Source: Candidatus Hermodarchaeota archaeon (GTDB lineage: Archaea > Asgardarchaeota > Lokiarchaeia > Sigyniarchaeales > SOKP01). From it: DNA of 56,732 bases. Positions 10,738 to 51,758 of this stretch are shown here, piece by piece (within the stretch, counting starts at the first letter, position 1; each line of letters opens with the position of its first letter). Both the position numbers and the translations under genes were made by a program. A model generated the notes under the pieces. The model saw only the letters and a program-made list of their open reading frames with translations. It was not told where the DNA came from and ran no database searches. The DNA lies in the NCBI GenBank assembly GCA_048885525.1, contig JBHLLP010000022.1:1-56732 (forward strand), in the 5' to 3' direction.

Positions 10738-12627
10738 ATAGTTTGGAATAAACAGATTGCATATATTGATTTAACAACTGGAGAAATAACAAAAAAAAAG
10801 ATTCCAAAATTAATACGAGAAAGATTTTTGGGTGGTAGAGGTATAAATATGTATCTTCTATACAATCATCTTTCACCTGGAGTTGATCCTTTAAGTTCTG
10901 AAAATGTTTTACTTGTAGGTGTAGGTTTATTAACTGGAATCCCTGCTATGGGGAGTGGAAGATGTGATATCGCAGCAAAATCACCATTAACAGGTGCGAT
11001 TGGTGATTCAAACATCGGAGGATTCTTTGCACCAGAGATGAGAATGGCTGGATTTGATCATTTGGTAATAAAAGGAAAAGCTGAGAATCCTAGTTATATT
11101 TGGATACATGATGGAGAAATAGAAATTTTAGATGCGAGTCATCTATGGGGAAAGGATACATTTGAAACACAAAATATCATCCGTTCAGATCATGAAGATG
11201 AAGAAATTAAATCTTTAGTTATCGGTAAAGCCGGAGAAAATCTTGTACGTTTTGCTAATGTAAGAACTGGTATGAAAAATGCAGCTGGACGTACAGGTAT
11301 GGGTTGTGTTATGGGATCAAAGAACTTAAAAGCAATAGCTGCACGTGGAACTATGGATATTGAATTTGCCCATCCTATTGAATTACTAGATTACTGTAAA
11401 GAAATGATCGAAATGGTCATGAAAAATCGCTATTCAAGAGCTGCATCGAAATGGGGTACACTTGTTATTTATAGCACCACAAATACCACAGGGTTAATTC
11501 GAACGAGAAACTTTCAGTTAAATCAATTAGAAGAAGGTTGGGATATTGAACCGGAAGAAATGGACAAATATACTATTGGAATGTCTGGCTGTTATGGATG
11601 CCCAGTAAGTTGTCGTCATCGTTATACATTAAAAGAAGGTTTATTTGCTCCCTTTTTTGCTGAAGGTCCAGAATACACATCTTTAGGTGCATTTGGTACT
11701 ATGGTTGATTGTAAAAAAATGGAAACCGTTCTTACAGCTAATCATCTTGTTAATAAATATGGTTTAGATACATTAGAAACCGGGGGACTTATCGCTTGGG
11801 CTATGGAACTCTATGAGAAAGGAATAATTACTGAAAAAGTAACAGATGGATTAAAGATTGAGTGGGGTAATGAAGAAGTTCTCTATGAATTAATTAGAAA
11901 GATTGCTTATCGAGAAGGGTTTGGTAATCTACTTGCTGATGGATTCAAAACAGCAATCCCTAAAATAGGAGAAGAATCTAGATATTACGCAATAGAAGTA
12001 AAGGGTATGAGTAATTTACATTCAGATGAACGTCCAACACCTAGCTTGGCATTAGGTATTATAACTTCAACTAGAGGCGCTGATCATCTGAGAGGCCGTC
12101 CCGCCATAGATCTTTATGGATTACCAGAAGATTTTTTGGAGGAAATATATGGTGGTAAAATGTCCTCTGATTATAGATCTTACGAAGGAAAGAGTCGTAT
12201 GGTTTGGTGGCAAGAGCTTTTGTATGCCGTTACAGATTCTATTGGTACATGTAAATTTCAAACAGTGTTTCTAGCAGTCCATGCTCCAAAATGGGAGGAA
12301 TTCTCAAAGTTAATCTATTTAGTTTCTGGATTGCAGATTTCAGATTCCCAACTTATGGAAATTGGTGAAAGAATTTACACTCTCGAAAGAATGTTTAATA
12401 TTAGAGAAGGTTTTTCAAGAAAAGATGATATATTACCAGATCGATACTTTGAGGAACCGACTCCTATAGGACTTCCACGAGTTAGGGGAATAAAAATCGA
12501 TCGAATAAAATTTGAAAAAATGCTCGATGAGCATTATAGTCTTCATGGTTGGGATAAGAATGGAAATCCTACTGAAGAAAGTCTACGAAAACTTGGAATT
12601 GAAAACGAACCAACTCAAATTATATGA
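10738..12627 (+). CDS. aor: Tungsten-containing aldehyde:ferredoxin oxidoreductase family protein (629 aa if started at ATA 10738)
   Basis: KSPLTG, GRTGMGCVMGSKNLKAI, GPEY, RGADH and DSIGTCKF motifs. An in-frame upstream extension (I)VWNKQIAYIDLTTGEI...FLGGRG is the typical AOR N-terminus. Confidence 0.92.
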   Translation: MVWNKQIAYIDLTTGEITKKKIPKLIRERFLGGRGINMYLLYNHLSPGVDPLSSENVLLVGVGLLTGIPAMGSGRCDIAAKSPLTGAIGDSNIGGFFAPEMRMAGFDHLVIKGKAENPSYIWIHDGEIEILDASHLWGKDTFETQNIIRSDHEDEEIKSLVIGKAGENLVRFANVRTGMKNAAGRTGMGCVMGSKNLKAIAARGTMDIEFAHPIELLDYCKEMIEMVMKNRYSRAASKWGTLVIYSTTNTTGLIRTRNFQLNQLEEGWDIEPEEMDKYTIGMSGCYGCPVSCRHRYTLKEGLFAPFFAEGPEYTSLGAFGTMVDCKKMETVLTANHLVNKYGLDTLETGGLIAWAMELYEKGIITEKVTDGLKIEWGNEEVLYELIRKIAYREGFGNLLADGFKTAIPKIGEESRYYAIEVKGMSNLHSDERPTPSLALGIITSTRGADHLRGRPAIDLYGLPEDFLEEIYGGKMSSDYRSYEGKSRMVWWQELLYAVTDSIGTCKFQTVFLAVHAPKWEEFSKLIYLVSGLQISDSQLMEIGERIYTLERMFNIREGFSRKDDILPDRYFEEPTPIGLPRVRGIKIDRIKFEKMLDEHYSLHGWDKNGNPTEESLRKLGIENEPTQII

Positions 12628-31944: not shown

Positions 31945-32936
31945 AATTGTTTCCTCCTGTTTTTTGGATCCAATGCATCTCGTAATCCATCTCCCACTAA
32001 CATAAAACCCATTACAGCTATCAAAATGAAGAGTCCTGGCCAAAAAGCTGCAAAATAGTTTGAGAATTGGACTCTAGCAAAGTTAATATCAGCTCCCCAA
32101 TCTGGGAGACTTCGATCTCCAAAACCTAAAAAACTAATTGAAGTCAAACCTAAGATTGCGGTTCCAACCCCTCCAAAGAAATTTATGATAATGGGCGATA
32201 TAGCATTGGGTATAAGATGTTTAACCATGATCTTAAAATATTTTGCACCTCCCGTTATTGCTGCATCAATAAATAAGCTCTGTTTCACCTGAAGAACTGA
32301 AGATCGCATCAATCTGGCGTAGATGGGAATTGAAAGTAATCCAAAAAAACTCAACATTAGTAGTAAATTTTCTCCCACCATTCTAGCAAAAAGAATCAGT
32401 AATACCACTGCTGGAAATACTATTACTAAATCAGCTAAACGCATTATAATCGCATCAGTCCTACCACCAAAATAGGCAGAAATTGTACCTACTACTACGC
32501 CTCCAACTGATCCAATTATTATGGGAGTAAGACCAAATGAAACCGCAGTTCTACAACCCCAAATCAACCTTCCGAGAATATCATAGCCATTGTCTGTTGT
32601 ACCTAATGGGTGTTCCGCAGATGGGGGTGCGAACGGATTAGCTCCGCTCTTAAGTGGGTTAGTTAATTCTTCAACAGTATATGGCGTTAACAAAGGAGCA
32701 AAAACTCCACAAAATATAATAAAAATTATCATGATAGAACCAACAACTGTTAACGGTGTTAGTAATCGTCTAAATACCTTTCTCTTAGACTGCGTTTTGC
32801 CTATTTCGTACTCAATATCAGAGAATTCAGGATCTCGCCACCCTGGAATCAAATAGAACTTTAAAAGATCAAATATTTTCCTTCTAGGTTTCATTAAGGA
32901 TTTAGTCTTATTTTCCCTAACGTATTTTTGAGTCAT
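31941..32936 (-). CDS. oppC: Oligopeptide/dipeptide ABC permease (OppC/DppC)
   Basis: HPLGT..G.D, SFLG, DWG and GDGLRDALDP. Confidence 0.92.
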   Translation of the reverse strand: MTQKYVRENKTKSLMKPRRKIFDLLKFYLIPGWRDPEFSDIEYEIGKTQSKRKVFRRLLTPLTVVGSIMIIFIIFCGVFAPLLTPYTVEELTNPLKSGANPFAPPSAEHPLGTTDNGYDILGRLIWGCRTAVSFGLTPIIIGSVGGVVVGTISAYFGGRTDAIIMRLADLVIVFPAVVLLILFARMVGENLLLMLSFFGLLSIPIYARLMRSSVLQVKQSLFIDAAITGGAKYFKIMVKHLIPNAISPIIINFFGGVGTAILGLTSISFLGFGDRSLPDWGADINFARVQFSNYFAAFWPGLFILIAVMGFMLVGDGLRDALDPKNRRKQL

Positions 32937-42233: not shown

Positions 42234-42872
42234 ATAGTATTTAAAAATATTCTAAGAATAAAAGCAGCTTTACCAGAAGTTAAACATGTGGCCATGTTCT
42301 ATAATAATGGCACAATTTTTCAAACTACATTTGAACAAGAGATTAATATCCCAAAACTAGGTGAAAATTTAGCAGAAGTATTGAATCACATAAGAAGACT
42401 GTATGAAATTTGTAATTATAATTTTGAAGAATATAAAAAAGTGATTTTTGAAACTGATGATATGTCTATTATTATTTTAAAACTTGGTGAGGATAGTAAT
42501 ATCGCCCTTTTTTTCAAGAAGGAGGAAGAAAAAGAATTAAAGTTAACTGCAATAAAACGATATATGACTAGAATTGAAGAATTAATCGATATGGATGAAA
42601 GAGAACTGATAATACAAGATATAATTGCAAGAGAAGAAGAAATTAAAAATATAAAAGAAGATCTTCATAAAAAAATAGAAATAATTACGAATTTGCGTAA
42701 TGAATTAGACAGTGTCGAGAAGGGGATAGTTGAAGGTGATCAGAAAAAACTCATGAAAGAATTAAATGATCTAGAACTTGAATGTAAAAATTTAAACCAT
42801 GAAATAGAAAAAAAAGATATCGAAATCGAACAATTAAAAGAAAAAATAGAAAAAAGCCATAAACAAGCTTAA
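42234..42872 (+). CDS. Roadblock/LAMTOR-like domain fused to a C-terminal coiled coil (212 aa if started at ATA 42234)
   Basis: The extension IVFKNILRIKAALPEVKHVAMFYNNGTIF provides the helix-strand-G start of a roadblock/profilin-like fold. VIFETDDMSIIILKLGEDSNIALFF follows, then ~95 aa of heptads. Confidence 0.6.
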   Translation: MVFKNILRIKAALPEVKHVAMFYNNGTIFQTTFEQEINIPKLGENLAEVLNHIRRLYEICNYNFEEYKKVIFETDDMSIIILKLGEDSNIALFFKKEEEKELKLTAIKRYMTRIEELIDMDERELIIQDIIAREEEIKNIKEDLHKKIEIITNLRNELDSVEKGIVEGDQKKLMKELNDLELECKNLNHEIEKKDIEIEQLKEKIEKSHKQA

Positions 42873-44900: not shown

Positions 44901-45569
44901 ATGGAAAATTTAACACAAATTGAAAAGGAGACTCAACACAATCTTAAAATAGCACAATATGAAAAAGAACTTGCCCAAAAGCTAAAAATTAATGCTTTAG
45001 CAGAAATTAAAAAGGCAGAAGCTAGAGAATCTTTACTAAAAATTGAATATGATTTAGCTGAAATTAAAAAAGATTTAGCGATTAAAAGAAGAATTTTGGT
45101 TAAAGAAAAAACACAAATTAAAAAGAATCAGATTTTAGACTTTTCGGATGAAGAACTAAAAATTGAAAATAATTATGCGGTTTATAATGAACAGATTTCA
45201 AAAAATCAGAAGGAAATTGCTGAAGTTAATAAAAAAATTGCCTTAGTAGAAAAACAAATTGCTGAACAAAAATTAGGATTAGCTAAAGAAAGATTAGAGG
45301 TAGCAAAAGCACGAGAAAAATTAGCTAATACACAAAATAAATACTTGAAAGTTGCTCGAGCACAAGCGTCTGAAAATAAAATTTTGAATGCGAAAAATAA
45401 CATAGAAAATCAAAAGAAAAAGTTATTAAAACAGAAAAATGACGTAATTGAAAAGGAAAAAGATGTAAGAAAAAAAGAAAATAAATTAGCTGATTTAAAG
45501 AAAGAACTTTCTTCGAAATTTGCTGAAAGAGAAAAAATAAGGCATCCTGGAGTTATCGTTGCTGGATAA
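44901..45569 (+). CDS. All-helical coiled-coil protein B (paralog of 43212..43868)
   Basis: Collinear with protein A, e.g. NKLADLKKELSSKFAEREKIR vs NKLADLKKELSEKLAERERVR. Confidence 0.85.
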   Translation: MENLTQIEKETQHNLKIAQYEKELAQKLKINALAEIKKAEARESLLKIEYDLAEIKKDLAIKRRILVKEKTQIKKNQILDFSDEELKIENNYAVYNEQISKNQKEIAEVNKKIALVEKQIAEQKLGLAKERLEVAKAREKLANTQNKYLKVARAQASENKILNAKNNIENQKKKLLKQKNDVIEKEKDVRKKENKLADLKKELSSKFAEREKIRHPGVIVAG

Positions 45570-45607
45570 ACTCTAAAATCTGAAATCAAATTATAGGTGA
45601 TTTTTTT

Positions 45608-46690
45608 TTAAATCCAATTTTTCCTTTTAAAAAATATAAGCATTGTAATGGCAATAAGAATCATTATTATAATTAAAATGGGATACGCAACTGGATTTGA
45701 GAATTCTGGCATATGAATGAAATTCATTCCATAAAATCCTGTTAAAAATGATAAAGGAATAAATACTGTAGAAATAATGGTTAACACTTTCATTATATCA
45801 TTCATTCTATTGCTTACACTTGATAAATACATATCCAACATTCCAAAAACAATATCTCTATAGTTTTCCAATTGATCACTTATTCTGTAAATATGGTCAA
45901 ATATATCTTTGAGATAAATCTGCAACTCATCGCTAATAAGTTTAGTCTGCTCTCTTTGTAATTTATTAATAACCTCTCTTAGTGGCCAGATTGATTTTCT
46001 TAAATCAATATTAGCTCTTTTTAATCGATATATTGATTGCACTAGTTCAGGTTTTGGATTTTTTACTAAAATATCCTCTAATTCATCAATAATTTCACCA
46101 ATAATTTCTAAAATTAAAAAGTAATTATCTACAATAACATCAATCAATGCATAAGCTAAATAATCAGCTTTCATTGATCTAATTCTGCCTCGTGCTCCTC
46201 TAATCCTTTCTAAAATTGGATTAAAAGTATCACTTTCTAATTCTGAAAAAGTTATCACAAAATTTTCTGCAAGAATTAAACTAATTTGTTCACTTTCAAA
46301 AATCTCATTTATCTCATCCCAAAGAAGTTTTCTAAGTACAATAAAAATAAAATATCCATAATCTTCAAATTTTGGCCGTTGATTAGGATTTAAGATATCC
46401 TCTAAAACAAGAGGGTGAATATTAAATTGATTGCCAATTTCCTCAATTCTTTCTACTTCAGTTAATCCTGTAATTTCAATCCATCTGACAAAATCTTTTT
46501 CTATAACCTGTAAATTTTTAACAGCTTCAACTTCCTCTTTAATTAAATATTTATCTTTATTATAATCAATAACTTTTATTCTTGTAGGTACTTTTGGTTT
46601 CTCACCTGCATATATTAATGTTCCAGGAGGTGTACCAATCTTTTCTGTTTTCTTTTTAACTTTGCTAAGTCTTTTTGATAGACTTTTAAT
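45608..46690 (-). CDS. corA: CorA magnesium/cobalt transporter (360 aa if started at ATT 46690)
   Basis: YGMNF..MPE signature. The frame stays open for 144 codons upstream of the tracked GTG and contains the CorA N-terminal motifs KIGTPPGTLIY.G, WIEITG and IHPLVLEDILN..QRPKFEDY. Confidence 0.92.
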   Translation of the reverse strand: MKSLSKRLSKVKKKTEKIGTPPGTLIYAGEKPKVPTRIKVIDYNKDKYLIKEEVEAVKNLQVIEKDFVRWIEITGLTEVERIEEIGNQFNIHPLVLEDILNPNQRPKFEDYGYFIFIVLRKLLWDEINEIFESEQISLILAENFVITFSELESDTFNPILERIRGARGRIRSMKADYLAYALIDVIVDNYFLILEIIGEIIDELEDILVKNPKPELVQSIYRLKRANIDLRKSIWPLREVINKLQREQTKLISDELQIYLKDIFDHIYRISDQLENYRDIVFGMLDMYLSSVSNRMNDIMKVLTIISTVFIPLSFLTGFYGMNFIHMPEFSNPVAYPILIIIMILIAITMLIFFKRKNWI

Positions 46691-46757
46691 TTTACTCTCA
46701 CCATTAAATTAAAAAGCATTTTCAAGAATTAAAATTTCAAAGATTATAATAATTTAA

Positions 46758-47570
46758 TTATTCAATCCTTTTAACTAAACTAGGTGTACTTATGTCGATG
46801 TTATATTTTTGTACAGAGGTAAACACAGATGATCGTAGTTCTCCTAATATTCTTAGCATTGATTTTATTTCCCTAATAAACACAAAAAGGGTATATTCAA
46901 CCGCAAAACTTTGAAAATCTGTTATTGCTACGAATGGTTTTGGATCATTTAGAATTTCAGGAATAGATTCTGTAGCTTCTAATAAAGCCCTTTCTACTTT
47001 ATCTTTGTCTTCAGTGTAATCTGCTGTGATTTTAATTCTTCTTCTAACTACATTTTTTTTTCCAAGGTTTTCTGTTTCCTCTGATAATAATTTCTGATTA
47101 GGTGTTGAAATTATTATACCATCAAAATCAACTAATATTGTAAACATTAGTTTTATTTCACGAACTTCAACCATTCTGTCCTTGTAAATTAAGTAATCCC
47201 CAACCACAAATGGTCTACTTGTCATTATTATAATACCAGCAATTGCGTTTCCAAACGTATTAATCGCAGCAAAACCGATAATCGTACCTCCAACTAGCGT
47301 AAATAATGATGTAATTAAACCAATTGCTTCGACAAATTGTACTAAAATCATACTGATAATTACTAATACAATTATTACTTTTACAATTCGTTGTAAGTTT
47401 CTTGCTGTCTGTTCTTCTAATTTTTCCTGTTTCTTAAGTCTATTAATTTGCTTTCTAAAAACTATATAAATTAGCCATCCGATTATTATTGCTAGTGCAA
47501 CAGCTAATATATTAATTATATTATCAGCTATCCATCCAAAAATCATATCAATTATGTTCTGAAAAATCAT
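46758..47570 (-). CDS. mscS: Small-conductance mechanosensitive channel
   Basis: 3 TM helices, GFAA...N..AG....RPF.VGD, PN and a C-terminal beta/alpha domain. Confidence 0.9.
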   Translation of the reverse strand: MIFQNIIDMIFGWIADNIINILAVALAIIIGWLIYIVFRKQINRLKKQEKLEEQTARNLQRIVKVIIVLVIISMILVQFVEAIGLITSLFTLVGGTIIGFAAINTFGNAIAGIIIMTSRPFVVGDYLIYKDRMVEVREIKLMFTILVDFDGIIISTPNQKLLSEETENLGKKNVVRRRIKITADYTEDKDKVERALLEATESIPEILNDPKPFVAITDFQSFAVEYTLFVFIREIKSMLRILGELRSSVFTSVQKYNIDISTPSLVKRIE

Positions 47571-47819
47571 TTTAATCTTTTCTAATTAGGAATTATTTCT
47601 ATTTTAATGATCCTATTTTAAAAAATTAAACGGTTTGGTTAAACTCATATGATAACTATAGTGAACAAAAGTAATTTATAGAATAAATTTATATTTCTTT
47701 TAATAATGGAATCTCAATTCACTAAATATTTCTTTTAGTAATACGATAAAAAAGCATTCTAAAATTAATTTTAAAAACTTTTTTCATTTTAATTAAAAAT
47801 GTGGAAAAAACAGAATAAT

Positions 47820-49982: not shown

Positions 49983-51758
49983 ATAAACCTAAGGAATCGA
50001 TTATCATCTATTAAGGAAAAGTTATATCAAAAACTTACATCGTTCTTTAAAGAAGAGGTTGATAGTAGAGATCTAAAAAATCTTGCAAAAATTATATTAT
50101 TAATTATAGTCTTGATTTTCACACTTGCCGCTTTAAATTTTAATAAATTTCAAAGTTATCGAAAATGTGAAAGAATTCAGTTTTATTCAGCGGGAGCTAC
50201 GCTATACGCAAATTTATATTATCCCTCTAGAACCTTATCTTTTCAAGAGAAAAAACCTTTGATTATTTATTGCCATGGAATTGGTAGCCAACGTGATTTC
50301 GATCTTAGGATTCCTATAGAATTTACTAAGCGCGGCTTCTACGTTGCTGCTTTGGATTATCACGGACACGGCGAAAGTGGTGGTACAATTAATGATATTG
50401 ACAGTTCAACAAATTCACCTGCTCTTGCTCAAGATTGTACAAAGTTATTAGAAAAGCTCAAGAGTTCATCATTTTTTTCAGATATTAACACATCTCAAAT
50501 TGGATTAATTGGTCATTCACTTGGAGGTATGGTTGTTCTTATGAATCAAGCTCTTAATCCAGATTTTAAGGCAACAGTTGCTTGGGCTCCCCTTGTAAAT
50601 TTCACACCGCCTAAATTTGGGCTTGGGTGGCAAGGATATGAGCAATATATACCTGCCAATTTAATTAATGCTACCAATTCAGAAAATCTACTGATTATTA
50701 TGCATGTAAATGATGAAGCCTTAAATTATTCTGAACAAGCATTGTTAGCAAAAAAATTAACAAATTGTACAGTTATTAATGTAACTAGACCTCTAATTGG
50801 AGGTGGTCATCAGTTATTCTCAAACCAAGTTCTTCTTGATTCAATTCAATATTTCGAAATACAATTTTTTAATTCTGAAAGCATAAATGGACCAATTACG
50901 ATAACTTATATTTGGAATTATGTATTAATTTTTCTAAACTTAGGGCTACTAATCTCTATCATTCTTCTACTTATTTCATATAGTTCAAAATTTTTTCGAT
51001 TAAATTCAAAATCAAGCAATCCCGTTATTAAGAATGAAAACAAACGCTTTCCTAAAACGAGAAAAATCGGCAAAATAGTATTAATACTTTTTTTCTCATC
51101 GATTTTTATTTTAAATTGGCAGTTATTTGCATCTATTTTTGGTTTGATTGGAGTATTTTTTGCATCCCTTCTTTTTAGTCTCTTCTACTTAATAATCAAA
51201 ATAATTAAATATTTCATAGGTTTTAAAAAAAAAAAAGTTGAATCTAAATTAAAAGAAATAATAAATCATATTAAAAATGAATTAGATATAAAAATTCTTA
51301 TCTATTCAATCATATGTGCTTGGTATTTTATCGTTATTTATTTAATTTTTTCATTCTTCTACCCTTTTGCTTTTATATGGCCTTCAAATCTCATAGCTAT
51401 ATTTATTTCGATATTATTTTTTCCAGTTTATTATTCAATAGAAATATTATTTCGAAAGCTCATATACCCTCTATTAAGTTTTGTAAAATCTGAAAAAGCT
51501 AAAGCAAAACTAATTATATTCTATACATTTATAATATATGGAATCTTAATGATTTTTGCTCAAAATTTTTCTTACTTACCTTCTGTTTTATTTACCTTCT
51601 TAATTTTACTTATAGCTACTGCCGTTAATACTATAATTTATGAACATACAAAAAGATTTAGTGCAGTAATATTGAGTTCTTTTAATATAATCCAAGTATT
51701 TTTCTCAGCTGTAATCTCAAATGTAATAGGAATTGGTATAGTTGGTCATTTATTTTAA
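49983..51758 (+). CDS. Alpha/beta hydrolase with N-terminal TM and C-terminal multi-TM domain (591 aa if started at ATA 49983)
   Basis: HG, DYHGHGES, GHSLGG nucleophile elbow and GGH; about 8 C-terminal TMs. The in-frame extension completes the N-terminal TM (KIILLIIVLIFTLAAL). Confidence 0.85.
   Translation: MNLRNRLSSIKEKLYQKLTSFFKEEVDSRDLKNLAKIILLIIVLIFTLAALNFNKFQSYRKCERIQFYSAGATLYANLYYPSRTLSFQEKKPLIIYCHGIGSQRDFDLRIPIEFTKRGFYVAALDYHGHGESGGTINDIDSSTNSPALAQDCTKLLEKLKSSSFFSDINTSQIGLIGHSLGGMVVLMNQALNPDFKATVAWAPLVNFTPPKFGLGWQGYEQYIPANLINATNSENLLIIMHVNDEALNYSEQALLAKKLTNCTVINVTRPLIGGGHQLFSNQVLLDSIQYFEIQFFNSESINGPITITYIWNYVLIFLNLGLLISIILLLISYSSKFFRLNSKSSNPVIKNENKRFPKTRKIGKIVLILFFSSIFILNWQLFASIFGLIGVFFASLLFSLFYLIIKIIKYFIGFKKKKVESKLKEIINHIKNELDIKILIYSIICAWYFIVIYLIFSFFYPFAFIWPSNLIAIFISILFFPVYYSIEILFRKLIYPLLSFVKSEKAKAKLIIFYTFIIYGILMIFAQNFSYLPSVLFTFLILLIATAVNTIIYEHTKRFSAVILSSFNIIQVFFSAVISNVIGIGIVGHLF

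Follow-up and report, generated by a model that had tools for sequence, protein, structure and literature searches.

A probable Shine-Dalgarno-guided AUU start codon for corA in a Loki-type Asgard archaeon, and its likely place in a wider use of near-cognate starts

Shine-Dalgarno (SD)-dependent initiation at AUU is an established phenomenon in bacteria. The E. coli genes infC and pcnB start in this way, and ATT, ATC and ATA are among the start codons of NCBI table 11. For archaea, a review of translation initiation names AUG, GUG and UUG alone as starts, and AUU is not listed (PMC7531240). Ribosome profiling of Haloferax placed ~30% of putative alternative initiation sites at near-cognate codons, and the study put them to one side as potential false positives (PMC7261190). 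Full-text searches turned up no account of Asgard archaea starting genes at ATT, ATA or ATC; the literature covered is incomplete, so that absence from it is unproven.

Here, we describe a corA gene from a Promethearchaeota (Loki-type Asgard) genome (3.58 Mb in 87 contigs, ~30% G+C) that very probably starts at AUU. Specifically, we assign a probability of about 0.85 to the reading that translation of corA starts at the AUU at position 46690, guided by the SD sequence GGUGA, giving an intact, ordinary CorA of 360 residues. How does this start compare with those already described? Like infC and pcnB, corA would use an Ile-type near-cognate codon behind an SD sequence, presumably with the ordinary initiator tRNA, and orthologs have canonical starts at the same site. 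There are three differences. First, the host is an archaeon with the eukaryote-type initiation factors aIF1, aIF1A and aIF2. Second, ATT, ATA and ATC make up about one-third of the strongly SD-led starts in a filtered genome-wide set, well beyond one or two regulatory genes. Third, corA shows no evident autoregulatory logic. With the archaeal starts covered by the review and the Haloferax study, corA has in common that the mRNAs are archaeal and SD-led; unlike the Haloferax sites, its near-cognate codon is the sole possible start of a conserved gene that encodes an essential domain. The corA start is, then, bacterial-type AUU initiation, here in an Asgard archaeon, and its special value, new here, is the series of ATG, TTG and ATT starts found at one site.

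Unless a contig is named, positions refer to the window, by which we mean the whole stretch of DNA that was analysed (56,732 nucleotides). The features of the corA start region are as follows.

45608 to 46690, minus strand: corA coding sequence as redefined, 360 codons from the ATT plus a TAA stop, based on the translation, the Pfam match and the alignment with Thermotoga maritima CorA (TmCorA)
46256 to 46258, minus strand: GTG chosen by automatic gene callers, here an internal Val at codon 145; the Pfam and PDB alignments begin far 5' of it
46688 to 46690, minus strand: ATT, the proposed initiation codon, at the ortholog start site and aligned codon for codon with the ATG of the closest ortholog
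46698 to 46702, minus strand: SD core GGTGA, with a 7-nt spacer to the ATT; it pairs with the 16S 3' end
46709 to 46711, minus strand: in-frame TAA that closes the frame 6 codons 5' of the ATT
46615 to 46704, minus strand: out-of-frame ORF of 29 codons plus a TAA stop (46617-46615), the ATG of which overlaps the SD

In the translated window, the minus-strand corA frame is open from 46708 to the stop codon at 45610-45608. The stretch between the TAA at 46711-46709 and the GTG at 46258 contains no ATG, GTG or TTG in frame, and the ATT at 46690-46688 lies 144 codons 5' of that GTG. A fresh reading of the minus strand returned the open frame, the ATT, the GGTGA, the ATG at 46704 and the GTG at 46258 exactly where the preliminary description had put them. 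It was the start-free run of 144 codons that made the missing corA start visible. With host codon usage, a run of this length without a canonical start has a chance of ~0.6% per gene, and ~20 genes per genome are expected to have such runs by chance. The part that is not chance is the position of the ATT at the preferred SD spacing, together with the recurrence of this arrangement in orthologs. The 3' end of the host 16S rRNA is GGATCACCTCCT, which is canonical, and its UCACC is complementary to GGTGA. Before the starts of long ORFs in the host genome, GTGA peaks at a spacer of 6-7 nt, which is the modal value. Thus, the corA ATT is preceded by an SD sequence that is complementary to the organism's own 16S rRNA and that sits at the usual spacing.

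What does the open frame encode? Pfam CorA (PF01544) matches residues 74-362 of the open frame with E=1.2e-68, covering profile positions 4-292 of 292. The alignment with TmCorA (2IUB, 2BBJ, 4I0U and 3JCF) is full-length, running from TmCorA residue 4 to the end with E=3e-99; open-frame residues 17-366 align with residues 15-363 of the 2iub chain, and the alignment with 3jcf begins at residue 4. The translation contains the GMN motif (Y-G-M-N-F), two C-terminal hydrophobic helices and a basic tail, in a region that aligns with TmCorA. Hence, the sequence hallmarks of the family are there: a full-length profile match, GMN closing the first transmembrane (TM) helix and followed by a second, and an N-terminal cytoplasmic domain. 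From its sequence, the product belongs with the ordinary CorA Mg2+/Co2+ channels of the Thermotoga type, intact and 360 residues long. It shares with TmCorA the N-terminal G-x-PPGTL motif, GMN, the two C-terminal TM helices and the basic C-terminal tail. The archaeal protein differs in an N-terminal Lys-rich tail that is ~14 residues longer, and nothing else about it is unusual. The earlier claim that the stretch 5' of GTG 46258 encodes the CorA cytoplasmic domain holds, since the Pfam match starts ~77 codons 5' of the GTG and the TmCorA alignment covers the same region.

These observations bear on one alternative, which is that the gene is a pseudogene decayed at its 5' end, or that it makes only a 216-residue product from GTG 46258. 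This is indeed the public gene call for corA on two Logan contigs, where an automatic caller gives the 216-residue product, and GTG is a legal start codon. The codons that such a product would leave out encode a conserved domain, and we know of no functional form of CorA that lacks the N-terminal domain. Moreover, dN/dS is ~0.12-0.25 over the 126 N-terminal codons that were compared, all of which lie 5' of the GTG, and this is equal to the value for the rest of the gene. Purifying selection on these codons indicates that the region is translated in the corA frame. In addition, there is no SD sequence before GTG 46258 at start spacing, the only motif listed being a GTGA 4 nt before an internal ATT. 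We regard truncation as extremely unlikely.

The region upstream of the gene contains two further features.

46743 to 46755, minus strand: AT-rich TATA-like box AAATTATTATAAT, a putative promoter, ~53-65 nt 5' of the ATT
46758 to 47570, minus strand: MscS-type mechanosensitive channel gene (Pfam MS_channel_2nd and MS_channel_3rd), the end of which lies 67 nt 5' of the ATT

The 67-nt gap between the MscS-type gene and corA holds the TATA-like box followed by TTTGAAATT. The closest congener (genome G008, corA ortholog L002) has both the box and the gene order in common with the window; its similar box, AAATTATAAAAAT followed by TTTGAAATT, is at an equal distance from the start.

The start site is also constrained by relatives. 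Orthologs were sought in 40 relatives and then in all 54 genomes of the genus, and corA was found in 37 genomes. The 5' ends were read in 32 same-genus orthologs, in which the site was fixed by the SD sequence and the conserved N-terminal peptide; the N-terminal tails vary by up to five codons. At this site, 17 of the 32 orthologs have TTG, seven have ATG and eight have ATT (one of them uncertain), and nothing else occurs, with the proviso that the orthologs are kin and that counts across them overstate their independence. The ATT types are the window gene, L004, L005, L007, L102, L104, L108 and, uncertainly, L105. The closest ortholog, L002 (81% identical), has ATG where the window has ATT, and both codons lie 18 codons before the Gly of G-x-PPGTL. 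Alignment of the orthologous 5' regions therefore puts the ATT at the position homologous to the TTG and ATG starts of relatives. That this position is a start codon rather than an ordinary residue follows from the TTG types: TTG accounts for only 11% of Leu codons in the host genome, and the site is TTG in 17 cases out of 17, never TTA or CTT. Similarly, the ATT types never have ATA or ATC here, and in seven of the eight the ATT stands at a 7-nt spacing.

An SD sequence is more regularly present before weak starts than before ATG. An SD core (GTGA, GGTGA or GAGGT) is present in all 25 orthologs with a weak start (TTG or ATT), 6-7 nt 5' of the codon except in the uncertain L105, where the distance is 9 nt; among orthologs with an ATG start, only four of seven have one. 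Overall, GTGA or GGTGA is conserved in 29 of the 32. Stop codons bound the frame as well. L004 has a TAA two codons 5' of the ATT, and L105 and L108 have stops three and two codons 5' of it, respectively, which makes an upstream start impossible in these three. Among L003, L009-L017, L101, L107 and L109-L114, most orthologs with a TTG start have an in-frame TGA within the GTGA of the SD sequence, two codons 5' of the start, so the ribosome-binding site itself closes the upstream frame. Two ATT types are not clean in this respect: 5' of the ATT, in-frame TTGs lie at distances of 5 and 7 codons in L005, and an in-frame ATG lies at 7 codons in L007.

In a maximum-likelihood tree, all ATT types group together, in a well-supported clade (96/87) that has 12 members, eight of them with ATT. 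The same clade holds ATG (L002 and L008) and TTG (L003 and L101), which are, as read from the tree, derived or alternating states. The remaining 19 sequences in the tree have TTG or ATG. Between the window gene and its counterparts in other ATT-bearing species, dS is 0.8-1.4, near saturation, and the codon is still always ATT. The weakness of the corA start across the genus (TTG or ATT in 25 of 32 orthologs) probably reflects one of two things: selection that holds the channel at a low level, or free drift under a relaxed stringency of start-codon choice.

Could the apparent ATT start be a product of an assembly or sequencing error? The preliminary description had allowed that one base is missing from an A-run, in which case one more A would put ATG 46704 in frame and the protein would begin M-V-R-V-K. 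A single extra base would suffice, there are several A4-A5 runs downstream of the ATG, and one ortholog (L015, genome G013) does have a frame-breaking indel in an A9/A6 tract. For the window, the idea is not borne out. Logan assemblies of two separate runs, SRR30758825 and SRR30758827, which may share a sampling campaign with the metagenome-assembled genome, match the window at each of 201 nt, all A-runs included, and thus contain no extra A. The error would also have to recur in the seven other species with ATT-type starts, five of which lack an equivalent of ATG 46704. This ATG overlaps the SD sequence and has no SD sequence of its own. Finally, an extension resembling M-V-R-V-K is found in no ortholog, and the ATT aligns exactly with the start codons of orthologs. 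An A-run error is most improbable, and this part of the preliminary description is not supported.

The indel in L015, which is counted among the 17 TTG types, deserves a separate word. It affects one base of the A9-G-A6 tract coding for the Lys-rich tail and breaks the frame ~45-70 nt 3' of the TTG. The same genome carries a second, intact copy of corA on another contig (G013:C85; L015 is on G013:C9). The break may have arisen in assembly, it may mark a pseudogene, or slippage may rescue the gene.

Two further alternatives give ATG 46704 a role in corA expression, and both depend on its conservation. Among the eight ATT types, an equivalent ATG is found in three (the window gene, L007 and L104) and is absent from five (L004, L005, L102, L105 and L108). 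The ORFs that it opens in the three are 29, 13 and 4 codons long, and the peptide is not conserved. The first alternative is that ribosomes start at ATG 46704 and enter the corA frame by programmed -1 frameshifting or by transcriptional slippage on an A-rich stretch. The upstream ORF does overlap the first 24 codons of corA (25 with its stop codon), and A-runs such as CAAAAAG could permit slippage of tRNA-Lys. Such a mechanism would need an upstream ATG and frame that most ATT types do not keep, and it would rely on an ATG embedded in an SD sequence, without a ribosome-binding site of its own. We saw neither a conserved slippery heptamer nor a structure downstream, and Rfam gave no relevant match at E<=1 over 45400-47700, including no Mg2+ riboswitch or leader RNA. 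Frameshifting or slippage is accordingly highly unlikely.

The second alternative is that ATG 46704 opens a regulatory upstream ORF, the translation of which would compete with AUU initiation or gate it, with Mg2+ as one conceivable signal; the preliminary description had also allowed that this ORF could be regulatory. Overlap of the ATG with the SD sequence makes the two initiation events mutually exclusive, and L007 and L104 have the same fusion of ATG and GGTGA. Neither the ATG nor the length or sequence of the peptide is conserved, and no riboswitch-like element was found. Furthermore, upstream ATGs are not enriched before near-cognate starts as a class: in the filtered genome-wide set, an out-of-frame ATG lies within 22 nt upstream of 18% of ATT/ATA/ATC starts, and the figures for ATG and for TTG/GTG starts are 27% and 29%, respectively. 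The regulatory proposal is thus not supported and very unlikely; the ORF opened by ATG 46704 is probably incidental.

Returning to AUU initiation, is corA a single exception? We scanned the genome for every 5-mer of GGAGGTGA and tallied the codon that follows at each spacing. Only 5' ends of coding-like frames of at least 120 codons were kept, with an upstream stop within 12 codons and no canonical in-frame start upstream. The scan is anchored on SD motifs, and its results apply to SD-led starts. ATT and ATA show a sharp peak at spacers of 6-7 nt, like ATG and TTG, and control codons show no peak. The counts at spacers 6-7 in a stricter set, which also has no canonical start within the next 15 codons, are as follows.

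ATG: 30
ATT: 16
TTG: 9
ATA: 6
Control codons: AAA 0, AAT 0, TTA 0, TAT 0, TTT 1

At spacers 5-8, the filtered set contains 28 ATT/ATA/ATC starts, 41 ATG starts and 17 TTG/GTG starts. The 28 include corA and a small GTPase whose P-loop follows the start directly. The peak of ATT and ATA at start spacing across the genome makes corA one instance of a lineage-wide habit. Together with the ortholog alignment, the bounding stops and the purifying selection, this enrichment bears out the original proposal that ATT 46690, with GGTGA as its SD sequence, is the corA start.

Three other genes in the window have apparent starts of this kind.

10738 to 12627, plus strand: aldehyde:ferredoxin oxidoreductase gene, candidate non-canonical start ATA at 10738, 6 nt after GGGGTGA
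42234 to 42872, plus strand: gene for a 212-residue protein without a Pfam match, apparent ATA start with a 7-nt spacer to AAGGTGA; a canonical start first occurs 18 codons later
49983 to 51758, plus strand: alpha/beta-hydrolase gene (591 residues), ATA start 7 nt after GTGA

The first 32 codons of the aldehyde:ferredoxin oxidoreductase gene contain no canonical start, and, with the ATA taken as codon 1, the AFOR_N domain starts at residue 6. In the alpha/beta-hydrolase gene, the ATA and its SD sequence are kept in the six closest orthologs; two orthologs (L128 and L136) have ATG instead, and four more have ATA. Elsewhere in the genome, there are two genes for the initiation factor aIF1/SUI1. 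In the one on contig C32 (~32305-32630, minus strand), none of the codons ahead of residue 88 is ATG, GTG or TTG, and the third codon past the stop is ATT. In the other, on contig C2 (~79600-79861, plus strand), a full GGAGGTGA precedes an ATA at a distance of 8 nt.

We consider it likely that Loki-type Asgard archaea follow a relaxed rule for start codons: AUU, AUA and AUC would serve regularly as SD-dependent starts, at about a third of the strongly SD-led genes in this genome, among them the gene for the fidelity factor aIF1. As part of the same proposal, corA would be a natural allelic series (ATG, TTG and ATT at one fixed site in 32 species), from which the grading of near-cognate codons could be measured.

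How might initiation at AUU work? GGUGA (46702-46698) would pair with the 3' end of 16S rRNA and position the small ribosomal subunit. With this pairing, the AUU that follows after 7 nt would occupy the P site. The normal initiator tRNA, with its CAU anticodon, may then read AUU with a third-position mismatch and insert Met. The output of AUU is expected to be lower than that of AUG, with the strong SD sequence offsetting the weak codon. The tRNA in question is encoded outside the window.

Contig C32, 9579 to 9689, plus strand: initiator tRNA gene, with an intron of 32 nt immediately 3' to the anticodon loop

The gene is standard in its A1:U72 pair, its GGG/CCC anticodon stem and its CAT anticodon, and no intron-free copy was found in the host genome. 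We also considered an unusual initiator tRNA whose anticodon is not CAU; when the genome was searched with an initiator-type anticodon-arm pattern that left the anticodon open, only the CAT gene matched. ARAGORN output is noisy on this intron-rich genome and falls short of a full tRNA census.

What are the implications of AUU initiation in this lineage? Without it, the conserved corA cannot be made, and the same is true of dozens of genes in the genome. First, standard gene finders shorten or miss such Asgard proteins, as they do in reducing corA to a 216-residue stump, and proteins that are missed or cut distort the comparisons of gene content on which work on the origin of eukaryotes draws. 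Second, an SD-dependent tolerance of near-cognate starts seems to exist in the closest lineage to eukaryotes, which bears on how the stringency of start-codon choice evolved with eIF1/aIF1. Third, the ATG, TTG and ATT versions of the corA start are ready-made constructs for tests of initiation strength. If the reading proposed here is true, this series could reveal how near-cognate codons are ranked by an initiation machinery that is archaeal and eukaryote-like.
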